This document shows, in pieces, positions 5,869 to 58,324 of a stretch of DNA of 64,000 nucleotides. Origin of the DNA: Candidatus Poribacteria bacterium. Lineage in GTDB: Bacteria; Poribacteria; WGA-4E; JAJDTR01. Numbering within the stretch: position 1 is the first letter of the stretch; each line of letters opens with the position of its first letter. The notes below the pieces were generated by a model. That model was given only the letters and a program-made list of their open reading frames with translations. It ran no database searches and was not told the origin of the DNA. Where the stretch lies: contig CBDBEE010000003.1 in the NCBI GenBank assembly GCA_965204085.1, positions 387,240 to 451,239 of the forward strand, given 5' to 3'. Made by a program: the position numbers and the translations under genes.

Positions 5869-5902
5869 GGTAGGAGCGATCTCCGAATCGCGACCGCGAT
5901 TC
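5869..5902. repeat. REP-like element: GGTAGG head plus the hairpin GAGCGATCTCCGAATCGCGAC
   Basis: The same unit recurs at 32537-32562 and 49739-49766, with a partial copy at 14849-14870. Confidence 0.6.
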
Positions 5903-6148: not shown

Positions 6149-8593
6149 CTAATCACTGAATCGGATTTTTTTGGTTGTAGGCTGCAAGCAGATTTGATCG
6201 TTGCACGCTTGATAATGAAGTTCTAGTTCAAGCGGCACATCATTTTCATCAGATTTTAGCCGGAGCTTCACCGGTATTGTAAACTTCCCTTCGTACACGG
6301 ACAGAGACTCCTCGCTAAAATCGAAATGCACGATTTTCCCTTCGGGATAATCCACCGATACTACCGCTGCAGGTGCCTGCGAATCGAGCGAAACAGAGGT
6401 AGGAATAAGCATATCTTGAGAAGCTGGGTTGGCGTTGATGTGCCAACCCTCGGCAATCTCAAGATGAACCTTTACATCAATAAAACGAGAAGGAGAACCC
6501 TTCCCTCCGCTTGGTAGGATGGATGCGCTAACCTCCACGATTTCAGTTTCAGTGCCGGTAGTTGGAGGGGAAATGTAAGAAGGGATTCGTTGTTGCCTGA
6601 AAATTGGCCGAACGTCCCAATGGCGATTCGCGGCAAGGAGCATGTGCATAAACCCGCCGGAGGATTTCGACATCATGCCCGCAAAATTCTGCAAGGTTTT
6701 CTCCGCTAACTTAAAGTAGTCGAATGTATCGGTTATTTTCGCGAGCGACAAGAGGTTATTCGCGGCGACCGCGTTTCCTGACGGAATCGCTGAATCATAC
6801 GGCTGTTTTGTGCGAACTAGCAGATGTTCCGCCCCCTCCAGCGTAAAATAAAACGCACCGTCCGTGTCATCCCAAAATAGTTCGACCATTGTATCAGTCA
6901 GTGCACGTGCTTCGCTGAGCCAACGTTTATCACCTGTTGCCTGATGCAATCCCAGTATACCGCGAACAAGGAAAGCGTAGTCATCAAGATACCCGTCGTA
7001 TTTGAGCACGCCATCCCGATATGTGTGCATCAGTTGCCCCTTAGCGTTTTTCATCTCTTCAAGAATGAATGTCGCCGCCTGTTCGGCAGCATTACGATAG
7101 CGGGTGTCTTTGAGCACTTCATACCCGAGAGCAAAAGCATCAATCATTAATCCGTTCCAGTTCACAATCACCTTTGTGTCGAGTAGGGGACGCTCCCGTT
7201 TTTCTCGTGCGCGCAGCAGTTTCGTCTTGAGTGGCTCAAGTTGCGCTAAGAATTCTTCTTCGGATTTTCCTTCCGCTTTCGCCGCATTTGCAATCGGAGC
7301 AGGTAAATACAGGATATTCTTGCCTTCGAAGTTCGGTCCTTTCGTCACGCCGTACACCTTCATCAACTGTTTCGACTTCCTCCGACCGAGAACATCGCGA
7401 ATCTCTTTATCTGTCCAAACGTAGTATTTTCCCTCCTCCGCATCGGTTTCGGCGTCGATCGCGGAATAAAATCCGCCCTCTGGCGATGTCATCTCTCGGA
7501 ACGCAAATTCAAAAATTTCTTCGGCCACACGTCGATACAACGGTTTCTGAGTCCTTTGATATGCGAGTAGATAGACCTTAGCCAACTGCGCGTTGTCGTA
7601 AAGCATCTTTTCAAAATGCGGCACAAGCCACCTCGCATCGACCGAATACCGATGAAACCCGCCGCCAATCTGATCATACATCCCGCCGTACGCCATCATA
7701 TCAAGCGTGTGAGTAATCATCTCAAGCAACTGCTCATCTTCTTCGCGGTCATATTCGCTAAGTAGAAGTTCGAGATTCGTCGGCGACGGAAATTTTGGCG
7801 CTTCGCCGAAACCGCCGTATGCCGAATCATAAGTTGACCGCAAAAATTCGACGGCGGATGTGACCAACTTCCGCTCCAGAGGTATTTCCTCTGATCCAAC
7901 AAGGCCCCCGCCTGTCGCCTGTCTGATCACCTCCGTAATCTTCTTCCCATGCTCGACGACCTCTTCCCGCCGATTCGCCCAGTAATCGTGAAGAGTTTTT
8001 AGCACACGCGGAAAACCTGGTCGGTTATGGCTATCCATAGGTGGAAAGTAGGTTCCCGCGTAAAAAGGATGTAGATCCGGCGTAAGAAAGACGGAGTTGG
8101 GCCATCCTCCTCCCCTCGTCATAATCTGAGTTGCCGTCATGTAGATTTCATCAAGATCGGGGCGCTCCTCCCGATCCACCTTGATGTTGATGTACATCTC
8201 GTTCATCATCGCCGCTATATCGGGATCCGCGAACACTTTCCGCTCCATGACATGACACCAGTAGCACGTTGAATAACCCACCGATAGAAAAATTGGTTTA
8301 TTCTCCGCTTTCGCGCGTTCCAACGCGTCCGCTCCCCACGGATACCAGTCCACCGGATTGTGCGCATGGAGCAGAAGGTACGGACTTGTCTCATTGATGA
8401 GTTTATTCGTCCATTTCCATGTGCCATCGCGGTTTTTCAATGCTTGTTCCCCATGCTTATCTGAGGCGGCTGCTGAAACATCGACAATTCCGCAAAAACA
8501 TATAGCTGCGTAGAAAACGATAGGCAGTAAGATCATGCGTGAAACGAAAAGCACGAAGGGAAACTTATTTCGCCAGCCATTTTGTTCTCTCAT
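6149..8593 (-). CDS. thioredoxin-domain protein, YyaL/DUF255-type (thioredoxin-like plus six-hairpin domain), with a C-terminal DsbD-N-like extension
   Basis: ATG at 8593 with a signal/TM N-terminus. The DUF255 signature is PVDWYPWG...[17 protein letters not shown]. The protein is 814 aa, about 130 aa longer than typical YyaL proteins. The last ~130 aa resemble the DsbD N-terminal (DsbC-like) beta-sandwich; this is an inference. Confidence 0.7.
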
Positions 8594-14589: not shown

Positions 14590-15080
14590 CTTCACGCTGC
14601 TAGAAGTTGCGTGTTTCCAAGGGATCCTATCCCGATGGCGATAGATTCCCGTACCACAATCTGTTAGATTGTGATCGCATCTGTGCGACGAAAGATTCCT
14701 CTGTCATGCTATCTGTGCCGGTAAAGCGTCCAAATCCGCTTGTAGAAGCGATCAAACGAGTGGTTAACGAGTAAGATCTTCTATCGCCTTGGGATCCCTA
14801 TCGCACTCGCTATACGCTCGCTTGATCTATTCGGTCAGTTAATCGATAGAGATCCCTCTCCGAATCGCGACCTGCTGGTGCTGGGTAAGCCCTATTACAA
14901 ACCAGTATTGCTGAGAAAACAAGCGCAATATTACGCAACGCATGGTATAGTCCGACTCTACGAGAGATACCACTTAGTCAAACCTAATCCGTGAAATCCT
15001 TTAACTGTTTAATCCGATCAAACGAACCAACAGTGAGTGCGATAGAGATCTTGATAGCTAGGACGATAGAGGTCCCATGT
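14590..15080. repeat. repeat-dense intergenic block, with more than 6 degenerate copies of a ~38-bp unit GATCAAGCGACTGAWTAAGGAGCGCGATAGAGATCC plus AATCCGT heptamer runs
   Basis: Copies of the unit also occur at 28736, 34918, 36571, 56405/56456, 58270 and 59620-59700 (reverse orientation). Confidence 0.6.
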
Positions 15081-15320
15081 AGCACTGTGAGACCCAACAC
15101 CAAGCTAATCTATTGTAGGGTGGGCACTGCCCACCAGTCTTTTCTAAGCGCCATCGTCCGTCTTTTTCCCAAAGGTCCGAAGCAGCACTGGCGCGTATTG
15201 TTCAAACTGCGCCTGGAAGTCGATAATTAACGATACATGTGACACAATCTGGAATGCTTCTCATTCTATCGCTGTAACGCTAATGCGAAATATCCCACAA
15301 CAGCACGGTGCCGTCATAAC
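15081..15320. repeat. ~240-bp block shared by the 3' ends and downstream flanks of the two WD40 genes, containing the REP palindrome TTGTAGG-GTGGGCACTGCCCACC (15113..15135)
   Basis: It is about 90% identical to 17525..17762. Confidence 0.8.
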
Positions 15321-17148
15321 TCCCGCTTCCTAACGTTTGGCCATCAGTGCTGAACGAAAGGCTGGTAACCGTCGATCCGTGTCCTTTGAGTGTCTGCCGA
15401 TGTGTGCCCGTCTCAGCATCCCAAAGATGAATGTGAGAGTCATTACTCCCACTAGCTATTGTACTGCTCTCTGGGTCAAAAGCGACTGCAGTGACGGCCG
15501 ATGTATGTCGCTCCAGAATCCAGCGGCTCTTCCCGGTGACAACACTCCAGATGCGGGCAGTACGATCACCGCTCCCGCTTACCAGCATGTCGCCGTCCGG
15601 GCTAAACGCAACACTAATGATGTCAGCCGTATGACCTTCCAAGGTTCGTTGATGCGTACCCGTCGCGACATCCCAGAGACGGATGGTAGTGTCGAGACTA
15701 CCACCTGCTAACATAGCGCCATCTGGACTGAACGCTAAGGTCGAGCGAGCTGGTCTGTACACGTTGTGGGTAATCTTTGACGCGTCCCACCGGAGGGTAC
15801 GCAGTACCACGCCTTTGTTGGCATTCCACAAATGAATGATGGCCTCGCCGTTCCAGCTTGCCAGAGTTGAGCCATCCGGGCTAAATGCAATGCTATGGTC
15901 TCGCCCATCATCGTTTTGCAGTGTTCGCAGGCGTCTCCCCGTCCTGACATTCCAAAGGTCTACACTGTGGTAATCACTTCCGGTCGCCAGAGTTCGACCA
16001 TCCGGACTATAGGCGATGCTGTTGGTCCGCGCAAACTCCAAACCTAAAGATTGTTCGTACGCACCTGACACTGTGTCCCACAGACGCACGGGGTTGCTCC
16101 GACTCCCGCTTGCCAGTGTTGCGCCATCGGGATTAAAAGCGAGAGTATGGACAGGCCTCATGTGTCCCATTACGGTTGCCAGCTGTGCGCCTGTAGCCGT
16201 TTTCCAAAAACGAATAGTAGCGTCCCAACTTGCACTTGCCAACCTTGAACCGTCCGGACTGAAGGTGATGTCGCTAACCCAACCTGTATGCCCTCGCAAT
16301 GTTCGCAGAAGTTTTCCCGTTGCCGCCGTCCATAATCGGACAGAATTATCGTTGTACCCGCACGCCAGAATGTTCCCATCCGGGCTGAATTCCACGCACT
16401 TGACCCCATGAGCCCAATCCTCCAGTTGGCGTATGTGATCGCCCGTTGCAACATTCCACAATCGAATACTATCGCCCCAGCTCCCGCTTGCCAGCGTCGT
16501 GCTGTCTGGGCTGAAGGCAACGCTAGTAACATTTTGGGTATGCCCTTCTAGCGTAAACAGTTTCGCACCCGTCACAGCATTCCACACATGAATGGTGTTG
16601 TCTCGGTTCCCAACTGCCAGCACGTCGCCCTTCGCGTTGAATGCGGCGTTGGTGACGTAAAACGTATCTCCTTCCAGCGTGCGTAAGTGCTCACTTGTCG
16701 TCGCATCCCAGAGACGAATGGTCTTGTCCGAACTCACACTTGCCAAAGTGCTTCCGTCCGGGCTAAACGCGATGCTCGTAACGTTAAATGTATGTCCTTC
16801 CAGTGTACGCATGTGTTTACCCGTTGCGGCATCCCACAGACGGATGGTACTATCCGAGCTTCCACTTGCTAGTATGCTGCCATCTCGGCTGAACGCAACG
16901 CTCGGAATGACTCCCGAATGTCCGGTGAGCAAGGCGACCTCCTGATGGGTCGTTGTGTCGTAAATCCATATCCCGATGCCACTGCCCACGGCAAGCCGAG
17001 TGCCGTCGGGAGAATACTGTATTTCGCTTGCGGCGCCTTTTCCGAGACGTACTTTGACCCCTTCGGGCAAACTCCACTGAGGGAATTCTTGTGATGTGCT
17101 AAGTGAGGAAAATGTGAGAAATGAAAGTGAGGCCAAGAGTATTCTCAT
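15280..17148 (-). CDS. secreted WD40-repeat protein (about 14 blades, two beta-propellers)
   Basis: The track ORF runs to 17259. An ATG at 17148 starts MRILLASLSFLTFSSLSTSQ (signal peptide). The body has about 14 repeats ending in LWD/VWN/LWN with GH dipeptides. Confidence 0.85.
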   Translation of the reverse strand: MRILLASLSFLTFSSLSTSQEFPQWSLPEGVKVRLGKGAASEIQYSPDGTRLAVGSGIGIWIYDTTTHQEVALLTGHSGVIPSVAFSRDGSILASGSSDSTIRLWDAATGKHMRTLEGHTFNVTSIAFSPDGSTLASVSSDKTIRLWDATTSEHLRTLEGDTFYVTNAAFNAKGDVLAVGNRDNTIHVWNAVTGAKLFTLEGHTQNVTSVAFSPDSTTLASGSWGDSIRLWNVATGDHIRQLEDWAHGVKCVEFSPDGNILACGYNDNSVRLWTAATGKLLRTLRGHTGWVSDITFSPDGSRLASASWDATIRFWKTATGAQLATVMGHMRPVHTLAFNPDGATLASGSRSNPVRLWDTVSGAYEQSLGLEFARTNSIAYSPDGRTLATGSDYHSVDLWNVRTGRRLRTLQNDDGRDHSIAFSPDGSTLASWNGEAIIHLWNANKGVVLRTLRWDASKITHNVYRPARSTLAFSPDGAMLAGGSLDTTIRLWDVATGTHQRTLEGHTADIISVAFSPDGDMLVSGSGDRTARIWSVVTGKSRWILERHTSAVTAVAFDPESSTIASGSNDSHIHLWDAETGTHRQTLKGHGSTVTSLSFSTDGQTLGSGSYDGTVLLWDISH

Positions 17149-17282
17149 GTACATACACCTGCGACGAATGTAAGCAACTTTCGATAAAAAATCTCGCATT
17201 GTAACGAAAACCACGCCGCGCCAACCACTTAGCCACTCGTTCCAGATTGACAAATTCACCTAATCTTCCTCTGACTATTCGG

Positions 17283-17524: not shown

Positions 17525-17762
17525 CAGAGTGAAACCCAACACCAAGCTAATCTATTGTAGGGTGCGCACTGCGCACCAGCCTCTTCCAAGCGCCATCGTC
17601 CATCTTATTCTCAAAGGTCCGAAGTAGCACTGACGCGTATTGTTCAAACTGCGCCTGGAAGTCGATAATTAACGATTAACGTAACTTCATCCGGAATGCG
17701 TCTCATTCTATCGCTGTAACGCTAATGCGAAATATCCCAAAAAAGCACCGTACCGTCGTCGC
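17525..17762. repeat. second copy of the WD40 3' block; its palindrome reads GTGCGCACTGCGCAC (17555..17577), with compensatory G>C / C>G changes in the two arms
   Basis: Direct comparison with 15081..15320. Confidence 0.8.
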
Positions 17763-19602
17763 CTCCACTAACTAGCGTACCGCCATCCGAGCTAAAAACG
17801 AGGCTGTTGACCGACCTACCGTGCCCCCTCAGTGTTCGCCGATGTGCCCCCGTCCCAGCCTCCCACAGATGAATGTTGCCGTCACTGCACCCGCTAATCA
17901 CTGTGCTGCCATCTGGGGTGAAAACGACACTCATGGCACGCGCTCCCGGCGCTTCAAGGGTCTGGCGACTCGCGCCTGTCTTAGTGTCCCAGATCCGCAC
18001 GGTTCTGTCACCGCCAACGCTTGCCAGCATGTCGCCAGTAGGGCTAAAGGCGACGCTGACAATGTCCGACGCATGCCCTTCCAGTGTGTGCAGAGGAGCG
18101 TCAGTTGCCACATCCCAAAGGCGAATCGTATAGTCGCCGCTGCCACTCGCAAACATTCGTCCATCGGCGCTAAACGCGAGACTTGAGCGAATCGGTCGGT
18201 ATGTAATATGCTCGACTTCTGGGGTTTCCCAGTTAAAGGTGCGCAGTTTCGCACCTGTATTGGCATCCCACAGGGTGGCGGAACTGTCGCCATCCCCACT
18301 CGCAATGGTAGAACCGTCGGAACTAAATGCAAAGATAACATCATCTTCGACATCTTCCACCAAGGTACGTACTTCAGTGCCTGTCATAACATTCCAGAGA
18401 CTAATGGTATGATATTCGTCCCCGCCCACTAGTGTTTGACCTTCTGGGCTAAAGGTGAAATGTGATAGCCGCGACCAATCACTTTCCAACGACAGTTTGT
18501 AAGCACCTGTGGCGGTGTCCCACATGCGGATAGGAACTCGCGGACTCGCACTTGCCAGCATGTTGCCGTCCGGGCTAAGGGCGACGCTATGGATGGATTC
18601 CAAATGTCCACTCATGATTCCCAAGCGTGCGCCCGTAGCCGTTTTCCACAGACGGATGGTGGTAGCCGCACTTGCCAGCCTTGAGCCATCAGGATTGAAG
18701 GTTAGAGCAGCAACCCAATCCTGATGTCCTAGTAGCGTTCGCAGCAGTTCCCCCGTCGCCGCATCCCACAGTCGGGCGGAATTGTCGCTGTACCCGCACG
18801 CCAACGTGCTTCCATCCGGGCTGAATCCCATGCACGGGACTCCACTCTCCCAGTCCTCCAATTGACGCAAATGATTGCCCGTTGCAACATCCCACAAATG
18901 AACACTGTCACGCCAGCTAGCACTAGCCAGCATCGATCCGTCTGGGCTGAAAGCAACACTTGAAAGGTGCTCCGTATGTCCTTCCAATGTTCGCAGGTGT
19001 GTGCCTGTAGACGTATCCCACAGTGCAATGTTGTAGTTAGGGTAACTCCATGCCGCCAGCACCGAGCTATCCATGTTGAACGCGATGCCTCCGACGCTGA
19101 ACGCCTGATCTCCCTGGAGCCGTAATTCGAGAGATCGTTTCTGTTCCCCGGTTACGGCATCCCAAAAACGGACGCTAATGTCATGATCGACACTTGCGAG
19201 TGTGGCGCCATCTCGACTAAAGCTGACGCTTCTGATACTAGCGGTGTGCCCCTTCAGCGTGCCCAAATGCGCACCCGTTGAAGCATCCCACAGTCGAACA
19301 GTTTTGTTTGAACTCCCACTCGCTAGTACGCTCCCATCCGGGTTGTACGCTAAGCACCTGATGTCATCCGCATGCGCGGCGAACAAGGCGACATCCTGAC
19401 TGGTCATGGTGTCGTAAATCCAGATCCCGATACCCGTGCCTACCGCAAGCCGAGTGCCATCCGGGGAATACTCTATTTGGTTGATCTTGCCTTTTCCGAG
19501 ACGCATTGTGACCCCGTCAGGCAAGCCCCACTGGGGGAATTCTTGGGAAGCGTTAAGCGGCGAGAGCACGATGAGTAATAGTAAGGTCAAGAGTATTCTC
19601 AT
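17722..19602 (-). CDS. secreted WD40-repeat protein, paralog of 15280..17148
   Basis: An ATG at 19602 starts MRILLTLLLLIVLSPLNASQEFPQWGLPDG. The N-terminus and blade structure match the paralog. The last ~12 codons and ~200 bp downstream are nearly identical between the two copies. Confidence 0.85.
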   Translation of the reverse strand: MRILLTLLLLIVLSPLNASQEFPQWGLPDGVTMRLGKGKINQIEYSPDGTRLAVGTGIGIWIYDTMTSQDVALFAAHADDIRCLAYNPDGSVLASGSSNKTVRLWDASTGAHLGTLKGHTASIRSVSFSRDGATLASVDHDISVRFWDAVTGEQKRSLELRLQGDQAFSVGGIAFNMDSSVLAAWSYPNYNIALWDTSTGTHLRTLEGHTEHLSSVAFSPDGSMLASASWRDSVHLWDVATGNHLRQLEDWESGVPCMGFSPDGSTLACGYSDNSARLWDAATGELLRTLLGHQDWVAALTFNPDGSRLASAATTIRLWKTATGARLGIMSGHLESIHSVALSPDGNMLASASPRVPIRMWDTATGAYKLSLESDWSRLSHFTFSPEGQTLVGGDEYHTISLWNVMTGTEVRTLVEDVEDDVIFAFSSDGSTIASGDGDSSATLWDANTGAKLRTFNWETPEVEHITYRPIRSSLAFSADGRMFASGSGDYTIRLWDVATDAPLHTLEGHASDIVSVAFSPTGDMLASVGGDRTVRIWDTKTGASRQTLEAPGARAMSVVFTPDGSTVISGCSDGNIHLWEAGTGAHRRTLRGHGRSVNSLVFSSDGGTLVSGGDDGTVLFWDISH

Positions 19603-19776
19603 GTCTATACACCTGCGATAGTACAAAGATATTCTGAAATGCCCAAAATTGAGACTGTTTAATATCGTCAAAGATTCTTCTAGCTGCCGACACAACAATT
19701 ACGAAGACGCAAATCGCTCAGACGCGATGAATTATTCGGGGCGAACTCGCTTCCACGCGAATCCGTCAATCCCCGA

Positions 19777-32457: not shown

Positions 32458-32675
32458 CGGTCATGTCCTCCTTATTCCGGTATTTCAATTCTATAGTCAA
32501 TGCAACTGAAAAATTCACATTCGGGGAATTTAGCAGTTCAGTTTGCAGGAGCGATCTCCGAATCGCGAAGGAGCAACTCAATACTCGCTCCGATAGAGGT
32601 TGCGTTATGAATCGTGCTACTACGAGCCGAACCCAGTAAATCCTAAATGTGAAATCCTTGATTGATGCGATAATA

Positions 32676-36075: not shown

Positions 36076-36320
36076 TTTCTCCTCCTTAGTCATGGGTGTA
36101 ATGCGCAGCCCGTAGGTTGGGTTGAGCGGAGACCCTGAAAATATCCAAGAAGTCAGATTGCTTTAGAGCCTGTTTGAGAAGTACATTTGTAGGGGACGCA
36201 GATCTGCGTCCCCATACGGATCAAGTTAAGGGAGTTCGTCTAGTATTGGTGAGTTCTTCGCCGCAAAACCCTTAACTTAGTCCCCATTGGGCGAGGAGTA
36301 AATCTCAATCTCACCCCATA

Positions 36321-36478
36321 CGGTAGGTGCGGTTTCCAACCGCACCGGTCCCCACGGAAACCAGCGTCATGAGTCATCTTCTGTGGTGCACCCATCAACG
36401 AATGGGTTGGTATTCCATCGTCCATGTCTACATGGAGATTAACAGTTTAAGACATTAGAAACCGCGTGACTTGCGACT
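36321..36478. repeat. ~160-bp dispersed repeat (a REP plus ~130 bp), present in inverted orientation at 59455..59615 (about 95% identity)
   Basis: Reverse-complement comparison. It contains the short track ORFs 36240..36425 (minus strand) and their counterpart. Confidence 0.75.
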
Positions 36479-36791
36479 CAAAACGCTTAACTTGATTCCT
36501 ATGGGGTGGGCACTGCCCACCAGCCTCTAAAAGCCCCAGCGTGGGATCAAATGAGCGGATAGCGAACGATCAAATGACTGATTAAGGAAGGCGCGATAGA
36601 GATCCCATAGAGATCCACTAATCACTAGCCAGCAACGGAGCGGATAGCGACGGCGGTAGAAATCCACTAAGCACTTATCTTTAGGGTTTCCGTTTCGCTT
36701 GAAATCTCCAAATCCGAGCGAAACCCAACCCGCATTTTCCCGCTTTCTTCTTTCAACTAGCCACTGAACACTAGTCACTGGCCACTGCCTT

Positions 36792-49674: not shown

Positions 49675-49867
49675 GGGAAATATCTCCCAATTACAATCTT
49701 CCGGAAACACCCGGCCCAGCAACCGCTTCGCCTCTACTCTTGTAGGAGCGATCCCCAGGTCGCGACATCAAGGCGAATCGCATCAAAATTCCGTCAATTG
49801 CGTGCGAGTTTTCGTCCCGAATTCCGTTATTGCACGCATTCCAAAAAGCAAATTCTAGGTCACACTA

Positions 49868-50500
49868 TCAGACATCCTCTCTTTCGGACGTTGGCTCTCG
49901 CTCATCGGATTTGACGCTAGCGAGCATAACCGGTTTCGTCTCGGGAACCCTTTCCCTTTCTGTCCCGCCGAATTCCGCCACCAATATCGCTTTGGTAAGT
50001 TGTTCGAGTGCTTCATTTGTAATCTGCAGGCTGTTCTCCGAGCTATTTGCCTCAACGGGCTCGGGAGCTACTGCCTCCGATGCGCGCTGCAGTAATCTTT
50101 CATGAGCCGTCCCAACCTCCTGCGTTAGCTTCGATAACTTGAACACATGCTCCATCGTATCCGACAACTTGGTATATTCCGCCCCGTCGCTTTCCTGGAT
50201 AGAATCCGTCAGTTTACTCACATAGTTGCGCATTATCCCAGCCACTTTGGTTTCGATATCCAACCAGTTGTCGTTCGCGATGCGCGCTTTGTCAAGTCTT
50301 TCCTGCGCGAGTTCATCCTCCGTCGGCTGATGCCAATCGTATTGCTTCGCCCAACGGCGGATGGTGTTTGCATTTACCTGAACGGGGAGTTGGCGGCTGA
50401 TTTCGGTAGCGGGCACTCCTTGCAGCCACAGCTTCTTCGCTTCAGCTATCACTTTTTCGGGTGTTTTCGGTTTTCTTCGCGGCGCGATGGCGTTTTTCAT
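49868..50500 (-). CDS. helix-turn-helix DNA-binding protein; the N-terminus resembles phage terminase small subunits or transposase helix-turn-helix domains
   Basis: PKTPEKVIAEAKKLWLQGVPATEISRQLPVQVNANTIRRW has an HTH-like pattern, followed by an acidic coiled-coil C-terminus. No other phage or IS genes are nearby. Confidence 0.35.
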   Translation of the reverse strand: MKNAIAPRRKPKTPEKVIAEAKKLWLQGVPATEISRQLPVQVNANTIRRWAKQYDWHQPTEDELAQERLDKARIANDNWLDIETKVAGIMRNYVSKLTDSIQESDGAEYTKLSDTMEHVFKLSKLTQEVGTAHERLLQRASEAVAPEPVEANSSENSLQITNEALEQLTKAILVAEFGGTERERVPETKPVMLASVKSDEREPTSEREDV

Positions 50501-50639
50501 GTGATATGTGCCTCATTAGACATCATCGGGCTGGACGCTAAACTACATGCACTAGGTACTACAGAAGAGTGTAGGTTGATAGCACCCCATTATCCTGTCG
50601 GAATAATTCTTTCAGCAAGCAACACGTTTTAGTCGGAGT

Positions 50640-50965
50640 CCCTTTCCTCGATCCAGAGGATCGAAATGTCAATAGAATACGATGTGTCCAGATTTCCGCG
50701 CTCCAGAGGAGCGCAATGTGTCATGCATCATAAATTGACCCTCGTTTTTCGCTCTATGACTGGCTTCGATCGAGTGTTACTTGCTGAATGACTAGCCGTG
50801 AAAAGCGTTCCTTCGTGGTCTGGTTTTCACTCCAGCGGAGTGCTATGTCAATAGAATCGCGATGCGTCTAATCTCCGCGCTCCAGCGGAGCGCAATGTGT
50901 ATAGCGCATCATCAAATGACACTGATTCTGCTCTATAGCTGGCTTTGAAAAAGTGTTGCTTGATA
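50640..50965. repeat. two tandem copies of a ~180-bp unit, each carrying paired short hairpins (GATCCAGAGGATC…CGCTCCAGAGGAGCG-CAATGTG)
   Basis: The period is about 179 bp (50651 vs 50830). An inverted copy lies at 57850..58090. Confidence 0.75.
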
Positions 50966-50967
50966 GG

Positions 50968-51000
50968 GAAAACCGAGTATTCGACGGAATACTCGGTTTC
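50968..51000. terminator. 14-bp hairpin, GAAAACCGAGTATTC-GACG-GAATACTCGGTTTC, about 100 nt downstream of the LamG-like gene stop
   Basis: The palindrome is visible in the sequence. It belongs to the same AACCGAG/CTCGGTT stem family as 26413 and 57692. There is no U-tract. Confidence 0.3.
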
Positions 51001-51097
51001 TACACAAACGATGGTGGGCAATATGAGGGCAATCGACGATTTCATAATCACCGATTGTACCCTACAAGAATAGATGGAGCGAGCACGGCTTCAACAA

Positions 51098-51970
51098 TTA
51101 GAATCCACGTTTCAGTTTTCCCCACGTGGTGGACACTTTGCCCGATGGATCGACCGCGAACGAGCCGCGCACATTCTGGTTAATCTCATCTTCACTGAAA
51201 GCCCGGTCGTAGACGCGGTAGATGGCGATTGAGCAGTTGCAGGTGCGCACCTCTTCGGCGCGGCTATGAGAGAAGATAGCGTGCAGCGACATATCATGCT
51301 TCTTATTCCATTTTACACTTGGCCCCGTTCTTCCGACTTTTTCGCCGTCAACATAGGATGTGAAATTCTTCCCGCTCTCAAACACCATGTGTACCCAGTG
51401 CCACTCCTGTTCGCCGACCCTCAATCCGTGAGTTCCTTTGGGCCAGTCGTCGCGCAAGCCTAGCGCGCCTTGAGCAATGCTTATGTTCGCAAAATCTCCG
51501 TTCCCGCCGGCATCCAGCCAAATCCGAAAGTTCTGAACCGTTTCCCTTGGTTGCGCCTGTATTCCGACGAGATGATGTTCCTGCGCAAGCATGGGTCCAT
51601 TTATCCTCATAAGCAGCCCCATGGTGAAGTCTTCAAGGTTCACGACGGGTGTTTTGGCTCCCGGCGCTGCGTTGCTGAAGGTCATACCCGATGCGTCGGC
51701 GGTGTACCACTTCGTGTCTTCCTTGAAACCGATACCTTTAATCGAGATGACGCCCTCTTCGAGTTTAGGCTTGAGCTTACTATGCTCCAATTCTCCGCCC
51801 GCCTCGCCGGCGTTTCGCCAGACTTTATCCCTGTCGGTTTGATCGGTTTCGGCAGGGTTAAAGTATAGCACCGCTCCGGGGATCGGCTGAGCGAGTGCCG
51901 TTGAAAGTGTCATCGCCATACCAACCAATACAATAAAAATGGCGATGGGATAAATTGTGTTTCTTGTCAT
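51098..51970 (-). CDS. secreted concanavalin-A-like (LamG-type) lectin/glucanase-fold protein carrying the same C-terminal tail as the PD40 family
   Basis: ATG at 51970 with a signal peptide (IAIFIVLVGMAMTLSTALAQ). WHWVHMVFESGKNFTSYVDGEKVG is LamG-like. The C-terminus is …FAVDPSGKVSTTWGKLKRGF. Confidence 0.55.
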   Translation of the reverse strand: MTRNTIYPIAIFIVLVGMAMTLSTALAQPIPGAVLYFNPAETDQTDRDKVWRNAGEAGGELEHSKLKPKLEEGVISIKGIGFKEDTKWYTADASGMTFSNAAPGAKTPVVNLEDFTMGLLMRINGPMLAQEHHLVGIQAQPRETVQNFRIWLDAGGNGDFANISIAQGALGLRDDWPKGTHGLRVGEQEWHWVHMVFESGKNFTSYVDGEKVGRTGPSVKWNKKHDMSLHAIFSHSRAEEVRTCNCSIAIYRVYDRAFSEDEINQNVRGSFAVDPSGKVSTTWGKLKRGF

Positions 51971-52174
51971 GCTTCTGTCCTCCGTATCAATCTAATTGGT
52001 CTTGCAAAAGAAACTAATGGCCAAATTGGCGATTTCCATAATCCTAAAATTTTACAACATAACGCTACGAAATACAAGGTTTAAGCGCAAAGCAGTGACT
52101 TGTGGCCTTTGGCTATACTATGCGTTGGGTATTATTGCGCTTTCTTTCCCGGTAATTACTGTTTGTAATAGTGA

Positions 52175-52281
52175 TTGTAGGGTGGGCACTGCCCACCATC
52201 AACGCGGTCACGTTGCGCGCCCGGGGGAGCCAGCCATTTATCCCAAACTGATCGGAATGGTGGGCAGTGCCCACCCTACAA
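52175..52281. repeat. REPIN-like inverted doublet: TTGTAGGGTGGGCACTGCCCACC…(61-bp spacer)…GGTGGGCAGTGCCCACCCTACAA
   Basis: The two REPs lie in opposite orientation within the divergent intergenic region between 51970 and 52537. A third degenerate copy is at 52341-52358. Confidence 0.7.
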
Positions 52282-52536
52282 CTACTTTTAAAGGTTGGTG
52301 CGCAGGGGATTTCTATCGCCCGCGCTATCCGCTTGGTTGATCGCACCCTACAAATGTACTTTTCAAACAGGTTCTGAGGGGCTCAATAATGCGGAAGACA
52401 AGTTTGAATTTCGCATTTATTTGACGCGAACCCTGTTTTCTGTTATGCTAACCCTTGTCATTTTTCCAGCGTAATTTCCAATTATATGTACCGCAGCATG
52501 AACGAATCGCATCACCCAAAGGAGGGTATATTCCCG

Positions 52537-57691: not shown

Positions 57692-57785
57692 GAAACCGAG
57701 TTTTTCGCGGCGGAAAGGCGCAAGTTGGCAAAATCCGATTCATTCTGCTTACGATTTGAAACACGCGAAACAAAAACTCGGTTTC
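57692..57785 (+). other. long-range hairpin: GAAACCGAGTTTTT (57692-57705) pairs with AAAAACTCGGTTTC (57772-57785) around a 66-nt interior that begins and ends with CGCG
   Basis: It sits 5 nt after the dehydratase stop. It could be a terminator or a small structured RNA. Confidence 0.3.
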
Positions 57786-57849: not shown

Positions 57850-58090
57850 ACTGCTTCTATCAAGTAACACTTTTTCAAAGCCAGCCACAGAGCGAAAAAT
57901 GACGTCATTTGATGATGCGTTATACACATTGCGCTCCGCTGGAGCGCGGGTATCTGGACATGTCGCGTTCTATTAACATTTCGATCCGCTGGATCGAGGA
58001 AAGGGACTCCGACTAGAACGTGTTACTTGCTGAATGAATTATTCCGACAGGGATAATGGGGTGCTCTAATGTGTCAACAATGGGTTGGGA
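57850..58090. repeat. inverted copy (about 90% identity over ~210 bp) of the 50640..50965 hairpin-repeat unit
   Basis: Reverse-complement alignment. Confidence 0.75.
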
Positions 58091-58324
58091 GACCCAACCC
58101 CTACGAAAGGGAGGTGTTCGCTCACCGCTCTTGATTGTCGGGTTGCGATGAAATTTCAACAGAACCTAGGGAATTTAACTTTCCATGTCCTACAAAGAAG
58201 GAATTACCCATGTGGTGTTGAGCATGAGTCGTTTTTGCACTGACCACTAGCCACTGGTCACTGACCAGCAACTGAGTGAATAGCGAAGGCGGTAGAAATC
58301 CGCTGCATTTCTAAAGGAACCAAT

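Follow-up and report, generated by a model that had tools for sequence, protein, structure and literature searches.

GTAG-tagged REPs have been described as occurring in heads-out dimers, in several families per genome and in RAYT-specific families (PMC3733652); the same paper reports GTAG repeats in Cyanobacteria and Planctomycetes and some families common to distant organisms. REPINs were described in Pseudomonas fluorescens SBW25 (Bertels and Rainey 2011, PMC3116915), and RAYTs are reported to be inherited vertically (PMC3116915, PMC5581495), in a single-locus pattern (PMC5581495). In the E. coli REPtron, TnpA-REP (RayT/YafM, PDB 4ER8) is found with REP/BIME sequences (PMC3333891, PMC3479197, PMC8266576); TnpA-REP recognises the GTAG foot together with stem and loop features and cleaves at CT or CA (PMC8266576). 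Here we analysed a 64-kb stretch of Candidatus Poribacteria DNA (the window) and consider it highly likely that its headed intergenic hairpins are GTAG-tagged REPs, with a pair of REPIN/BIME type at 52.2 kb, belonging to a REP-RAYT (REPtron) system of this phylum.

The window elements resemble the GTAG-tagged families (Nunvar 2010; Di Nocera, De Gregorio and Rocco 2013, PMC3733652) in being stem-loops of 20-25 nt in which one end carries an unpaired GTAG, the stem has 6-9 bp and the loop 1-3 nt. Subfamilies differing by complementary stem changes, heads-out dimers and the presence of several families in one genome are further shared features. The host differs, Candidatus Poribacteria being absent from the reports found, and the literature searched yielded no report of REPs or RAYTs in this phylum. 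The 17-nt core of the most frequent class described below, GGTGGGCAcTGCCCACC, was not found in the literature searched or in the text and supplements of PMC3733652; the core may still match one of the family consensus sequences GTAG-1 to GTAG-24.

The window encodes proteins with WD40, PD40, LRR, dockerin/cohesin and planctomycete cytochrome c domains (Pfam), and a search with Rfam at the gathering threshold together with a tRNA scan returned nothing. About 15 intergenic elements combine a hairpin with a (Y)GTAGG head at its foot, and all of them are placed between long ORFs. In an unbiased list of all perfect window hairpins with a stem of at least 7 bp, GTAG was the commonest tetramer directly 5' of the hairpin (10 of 98 sides, compared with 0.48 expected from its frequency in the window). 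The four hairpin classes that an earlier note on this DNA had listed, here called A to D, were all located at the positions it gave. The class-A core is present in four exact copies, at 15119, 36505 and 52181 (+) and at 52259 (-), and had no match in shuffled sequence. These copies correspond to a singleton REP at 15115..15136 (+), a hairpin with the degenerate head ATGG at 36501..36522 (+) and the two units of the 52.2-kb doublet. A compensatory variant of the core, GGTGCGCAcTGCGCACC, lies at 17561, where a G:C pair is replaced by C:G; the corresponding REP, class A2, spans 17557..17578 (+) and reads GGTGCGCA-c-TGCGCACC.

Class B, GGAACGCAGATCTGCGTTCC, is found at 21382, 29026 and 36193. Two copies are headed hairpins, at 21378..21401 (+), where GTAG precedes GGAACGCAGATCTGCGTTCC, and at 36189..36213 (+), which reads GTAG(G)GGACGCAGATCTGCGTCCCC; the third is a palindrome at 29019..29052, annotated on neither strand, with CTAGG inside a 15-bp stem and no exact GTAG. 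Class C, GGTGCGGTTnnnAACCGCACC at 21497 and 36326, forms headed hairpins at 21494..21517 (+), of the form GTA-GGTGCGGTT-aga-AACCGCACC, and at 36323..36346 (+), and is also present in loci L002 and L095, there headed on both sides. Class D is marked by the motif GAGCGATCTCCGAATCGCGAC at 5874, 32549 and 49741, within repeats at 5870..5894 (+; GTAGGAGCGATCTCCGAATCGCGAC, headed, with a weak hairpin), 32545..32569 (+; head GCAG) and 49741..49766 (+; TGTAGGAGCGATCCCCAGGTCGCGAC). Two further elements were unlisted in the earlier note: a headed hairpin at 58082..58104 (-), in which GTAG is joined to GGGTTGGG-tct-CCCAACCC, and a headed element with a long loop at 52297..52352 (-), TTGTAGGGTGCGATCAA...GCGATAGAAATCCCCTGCGCACC (also given as TTGTAGGGTGCGATCAA...CTGCGCACC), which adjoins the doublet. 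What the 58.1-kb hairpin and classes B, C and D have in common with class A is the GTAGG foot only.

As single-stranded DNA, classes A, B and C gave clearly more stable folds than shuffled sequences (z -2.6 to -6.2), and their copy numbers are far in excess of those in shuffles; class D folded no better than its shuffles (z -1.1 and -0.3). Class D thus stands as a real repeat and is a poor hairpin, so that its earlier description as one of the hairpin families is only half borne out. Similarly, the proposed GTAG head shared by all classes agrees with the tetramer count given above and fails at three elements, with ATGG at 36501, CTAG at 29021 and GCAG at 32545. A composite element with B and C as its two ends was also considered and rejected because the sequence between B and C is unlike at the two sites where they occur together, 21.4 kb and 36.2 kb.

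The segment 12434-23214 of the window is syntenic with the Poribacteria chromosome OZ244829.1 (L028) at 78-95% nucleotide identity. Within it, the class-A singleton at 15115..15136 lies 145 nt downstream of the stop of a WD40 gene (15280-17259, -), and the corresponding intergenic region of L028 also carries a REP, at 2198. This WD40 gene and its tandem paralogue at 17722-19698 each have a REP 145 nt downstream (15119 and 17561), the flanks are near-identical, and the stems of the two REPs are one compensatory G:C to C:G change apart; L028 apparently has a single WD40 gene at this site. Elsewhere in the window, downstream of the class-A REP at 36505, positions 36555-36670 contain GCGGATAGCG...GCGATAGA(A/G)ATCC stretches. 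These resemble both the interior of the 52297-52352 long-loop element and stretches adjoining the RAYT gene in two other Poribacteria loci (L121, L123), and suggest a BIME-like mosaic composed of REPs and linker motifs.

The doublet at 52.2 kb (52166..52290, annotated on neither strand) consists of two inverted copies of TGTAGGGTGGGCACTGCCCACCA with their heads outward. Its left unit, 52177..52198 (+), is a class-A REP with a GTAG head followed by GGTGGGCA-c-TGCCCACC and A; its right unit, 52258..52279 (-), is inverted with its head facing outward as well. The arms (52166-52199 and 52257-52290) are 34 nt each, 91% complementary and 57 nt apart, and as single-stranded DNA the doublet is predicted to form one long hairpin with a 25-bp stem (-39.8 kcal/mol, z -6.3 against shuffles). 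The REPIN architecture that had been proposed for this inverted pair is therefore what was found. As in the SBW25 REPINs, an inverted REP pair makes one long hairpin and the doublet appears to recur as a unit: a 116-nt unit, spacer included, is present at 92% identity in another Poribacteria genome (L074, 6746-6859), which has no homologue there of the genes neighbouring the window doublet.

The spacer of the doublet has opposite orientations in the two genomes, and the alignment of L074 with window 52175-52290 gives the impression that the stretch lying between the inverted REP arms was flipped; the arrangement would fit either an inversion between the arms or an independent insertion. An intergenic motif of about 65 nt adjoins the doublet in both genomes, and therefore the repeated unit may exceed the doublet, or the two loci may be distantly related. 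This motif, TATACCWTGCGTTGGGTATTWTTGCGCTTTCTTTCCCGGTAATTAYTGTTTGTAATAGTGATT, is found at 52100-52175 (+) and 14892-14960 (-) in the window, at 6694-6754 in L074 and at 4623-4689 in L095, and directly abuts a class-A REP in three of these four copies. It could be a promoter, a leader or an element that inserts beside REPs. On the opposite strand of the left REP head (52174-52202, -), CCTACAAT gives a -10-like TACAAT, a promoter-like match by consensus only, directed toward the gene at 51098-51970.

A scan for the class-A pattern, the exact 21-mer GTAGGGTGGGCACTGCCCACC, with one genome per species, returned at least 120 sites. The exact 21-mer is present in at least five phyla, namely Poribacteria (9 sites among the matches listed), Cyanobacteria (56), Planctomycetota (30), Desulfobacterota (11 Desulfobacterota-type sites) and Gammaproteobacteria (10, including other Pseudomonadota), with 4 further sites unclassified. 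In the flanks of the listed matches, two features alone are conserved, an A that follows (105 of 137) and a weak preference for a pyrimidine before the G; conservation ends just outside the 21-mer, and the unit is therefore about 22-23 nt long. When those GGTGGGC-type hairpins in the 120 loci listed were taken that lay outside the search pattern, and hence had undergone no selection for a head, 29 of 33 had an exact GTAG on one side and the other four were near misses, so that the head, expected by the earlier note to be conserved among aligned copies, proved to be so.

Neighbouring REP copies in the 120 loci listed were arranged heads-out in 31 cases, in tandem in 7 and heads-in in none, and the gaps measure 13-131 nt. 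Roughly half of the copies in these loci are singletons, and this, together with the highly variable spacers, distinguishes the family from the SBW25 REPINs. A Y1-transposase/RAYT gene stands directly beside the REP in 5 of the 120 sites listed (L016, L024, L056, L061 and L089); in both the Isosphaeraceae locus L016 and the Poribacteria locus L089, the gene is bracketed by inverted REPs with heads outward. Phage carriage was considered too and rejected: the class-A 21-mer is present in 11 predicted viral contigs of IMG/VR (L209-L219; GC 57-65%), in up to five copies each, and these contigs contain neither a RAYT gene nor class B.

The earlier note saw no RAYT gene in the window; a homologue of the enzyme was identified among the closest relatives of the L089 RAYT. 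This protein, P0208 (191 aa), is recorded on a contig of 2,063,690 bp. Seven proteins of the window are recorded, from the same sources, on a contig of exactly this length, and P0208 is consequently taken to share the contig of the window, which is very probably the case. It scores 183.9 bits against the NCBIfam equivalog NF047646, 'REP-associated tyrosine transposase', passing the cut-off of 80, and 34 bits against Pfam Y1_Tnp (PF01797). It differs by one residue from P0003; its near-identical orthologue in L121/L122 is one residue different. The IS200/IS605 family offers a parallel, in that its HUH/Y1 enzymes act on single-stranded hairpins that are sub-terminal and have a tetranucleotide 5' of their foot; an insertion sequence of this kind was nevertheless rejected, as P0208 reaches 23.3 bits against the IS200 model NF033573 (cut-off 55), its gene is single and syntenic instead of multi-copy, and the hairpins are dispersed alone.

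The alignment of P0208 with E. coli TnpA-REP (4ER8; E 1e-33) covers the full length of the protein. Its HUH motif (DHIH), Y133 and N137-P138 are invariant in 33 relatives, and W112, Q113, E118, H119 and R122 align with W94, Q95, E100, H101 and R104 of the E. coli protein, which are the residues that contact GTAG (PMC6006769). With its catalytic residues kept and its ORF intact, P0208 is a RAYT by its sequence features. The likeness to the E. coli REPtron thus covers the HUH motif, the catalytic Tyr, the Asn, the GTAG-contact residues, the C-terminal extension and the inverted flanking REPs. The signature DH[LI]H, WE, YIHYNP of the Poribacteria RAYTs is that listed for subclass 2.2, or Bertels group 2, a placement made by signature only. 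This group is mainly proteobacterial and associated with long bulged REPs (PMC6006769), whereas the presumed cognate REPs here are short perfect palindromes with 8 bp and a loop of 1-3 nt, in hosts outside the Proteobacteria. Another difference lies in the C-terminal extension (P0208 residues 146-172), where C146, H148, C170 and C172 are invariant in this RAYT clade (CPHLW...DWCCxC) and the corresponding part of E. coli TnpA-REP has no Cys. These four residues may form a metal-binding site.

The RAYT locus is syntenic in six Poribacteria loci (L089 and L121-L125), in all of which the gene has an ORF of 166-181 aa as its neighbour in one direction and genes for an HD-domain protein and a TPR protein in the other direction; the RAYT proteins are 69-87% identical to that of L089. 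As the earlier note had anticipated, the gene is flanked in these relatives by the same type of REP. In L089, L121, L122 and L123, the flanking elements are class-A REPs with the stem GGTGGGCA; in L124 the stem is GGTGCGCA, the A2 type also found at 17557..17578 in the window, and in L125 it is GGCGCGCA. The TGTAGG head and the loop are constant across the six loci, while the stems vary by complementary substitutions. Relatives of the long-loop element adjoin the gene in L121, L123 and L124, and L124 also carries a D-like element beside its single RAYT. Local rearrangements were observed as well: in L124 (2501-3079) the gene is turned around with respect to its neighbours, in L125 (1057-3082) it occurs as three tandem copies, and in L089 its 3' end was duplicated together with a doublet (6343-6555). 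Judged by gene order, the locus is a match to the single-locus, vertically inherited pattern described for RAYTs, a further resemblance to the single-copy RAYT associated with the SBW25 REPINs. Class A, class A2 and the long-loop element are the predicted cognate REPs of the one RAYT identified.

Metagenome contigs were scanned with a RAYT alignment, and 80 loci were kept with up to 1,200 nt of sequence on each side. GTAG-headed perfect hairpins surround the gene in 76 of the 80. Their stems vary between loci (for instance GGTGGGC, GGTGCGAT, GGTACGC, GTCACGCAC and GTTGGGTT), and RAYTs with the first seven stem bases in common are 56.5% identical, compared with 49.3% for those that differ (permutation p = 0.0005, uncorrected for relatedness). 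The RAYT of Cyanothece (Rippkaea) PCC 8801, 62% identical to that of L089, is followed by GTAGGGTGGGCAAA-long loop-TTTGCCCACCCTAC, in which foot and stem are the same and the loop is long.

Separate REP families, each with its own RAYT paralogue elsewhere in the genome, could account for classes B, C and D and for the hairpin at 58.1 kb; to this tentative alternative we give a minor though appreciable weight. It is in keeping with the differences in stem between RAYT lineages and with the general rule, stated in PMC6006769 and PMC3733652, that each tnpA-REP has its own REP family and that a genome can hold several. On the other hand, one RAYT locus was found in the Poribacteria DNA examined, and stems of class B, C or D stood beside the gene in none of 82 RAYT loci, which leaves the earlier suggestion of a distinct RAYT for each of these classes unsupported. 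The D-like element and the long-loop elements beside the single RAYT of L124 hint instead at one enzyme with several substrates.

Under the preferred reading, a REP-RAYT system, the mechanism would follow that worked out for related enzymes. The RAYT, as an HUH/Y1 enzyme, would bind the folded single-stranded REP hairpin strand-specifically (by analogy with PMC3333891, PMC3479197 and PMC8266576), and would read the GTAG foot together with stem and loop features, as work on E. coli, S. maltophilia and Marinomonas implies. It would then cut at a nearby CT or CA dinucleotide and rejoin the DNA, and this cutting and rejoining would copy or move REPs and doublets, while the RAYT gene itself would stay single-copy and be inherited vertically.

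The elements could instead be immobile relics of REPs that spread long ago, with a RAYT by now domesticated for another role and the present differences between genomes produced by decay, gene conversion and recombination between inverted copies. The synteny of the RAYT at a single locus across Poribacteria, with a protein differing by up to about 30%, is compatible with this, as are the degenerate heads at 36501, 29021 and 32545; the doublet spacer and the RAYT gene, both found inverted between inverted REPs, fit recombination. Against it, perfectly identical copies are present within the window and across genomes, the RAYT retains an intact ORF and conserved catalytic residues, and related genomes carry different REP classes at orthologous intergenic sites. 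The stretch preceding the Lhr helicase gene on its upstream side, for example, has B and C elements in the window and a class-A REP in L028, and only its REP-free part aligns. No transposition event was observed, and recombination or decay could also be sources of such REP differences between genomes. We regard the relic reading as unlikely. It is very improbable that the hairpins are mainly terminators or mRNA-stabilising or regulatory structures maintained by selection, with an incidental transposase link: many elements lie just downstream of genes, as after both WD40 genes, and E. coli REPs have such secondary roles (PMC6006769, PMC3733652), but neighbouring genes show no T-run on the transcribed strand, several elements occupy divergent promoter regions (21.4 kb and 52.2 kb), the same 21-mer flanks RAYT genes and recurs in five phyla, and the intrinsic terminator reading was rejected because terminator-like sites were no commoner than in shuffles, the single fit, 15119 (+), having no + strand gene upstream.

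Other repeats and compositional features were noted in the same region. A repeat of about 190 bp is present at 50577-50780 (+), 50840-50915 (+, partial) and 57880-58059 (-), as well as in L002 (3320-3465) and L095 (7482 and 7812), and is about 90% identical in another Poribacteria genome. It holds two to three hairpin motifs, YCC-GCGCTCC-AGM-GGAGCGC-AATGT and CCTCGATCC-AGA-GGATCGA-AATGT, which have no GTAG head, and two of its copies, in inverted orientation and separated by 7.3 kb, bracket the genes at 51-57.7 kb. Hairpins of another family, which are long and AT-richer, are built on GAAACCGAGT...ACTCGGTTTC and have 13-14 bp in the stem; they occur at 26413-26444, 50970-50999 and 57692-57785. 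GC skew changes sign at about 50000-52500, its cumulative curve being lowest at about 50-52 kb, and the doublet marks a turn of gene orientation from - to +. In the window, 8 elements to the left of about 52 kb have their REP heads on the + strand, and 3 elements to the right of it have theirs on the - strand. An association of head strand with skew or coding strand was rejected as a general rule, since 69 singletons elsewhere, among the matches listed, gave Fisher p values of 0.63 for local skew and 0.81 for the coding strand.

With the REP family known and the RAYT almost certainly on the same contig, the locus represents an ordinary system in a little-studied sponge-symbiont phylum, and no new mechanism is revealed. 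Only two observations go somewhat beyond the textbook picture, namely the identical 21-mer in five phyla and the several hairpin classes that have only their foot in common. A bolder interpretation, which we judge rather unlikely, is that a 21-nt REP identical to the letter across five phyla, with enzymes at about 55-60% identity, reflects repeated RAYT-REP transfer between phyla or a long-frozen recognition code, that one enzyme serves several unrelated hairpins (A, B, C, D and long-loop) sharing only the GTAGG foot, and that a group-2-like RAYT clade uses short perfect REPs. If true, repeated moves of RAYT-REP pairs between phyla would run against the mainly vertical picture of their inheritance.

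The findings extend the REP/RAYT system to Candidatus Poribacteria, an uncultivated phylum of sponge symbionts, and show in a clean case how stems co-vary between RAYT orthologues of a single syntenic locus. The GTAG-headed repeats explain many of the intergenic palindromes and are likely assembly break points in such genomes, which is of use for annotation. The identity of one REP across phyla offers a handle on horizontal spread over long time scales.
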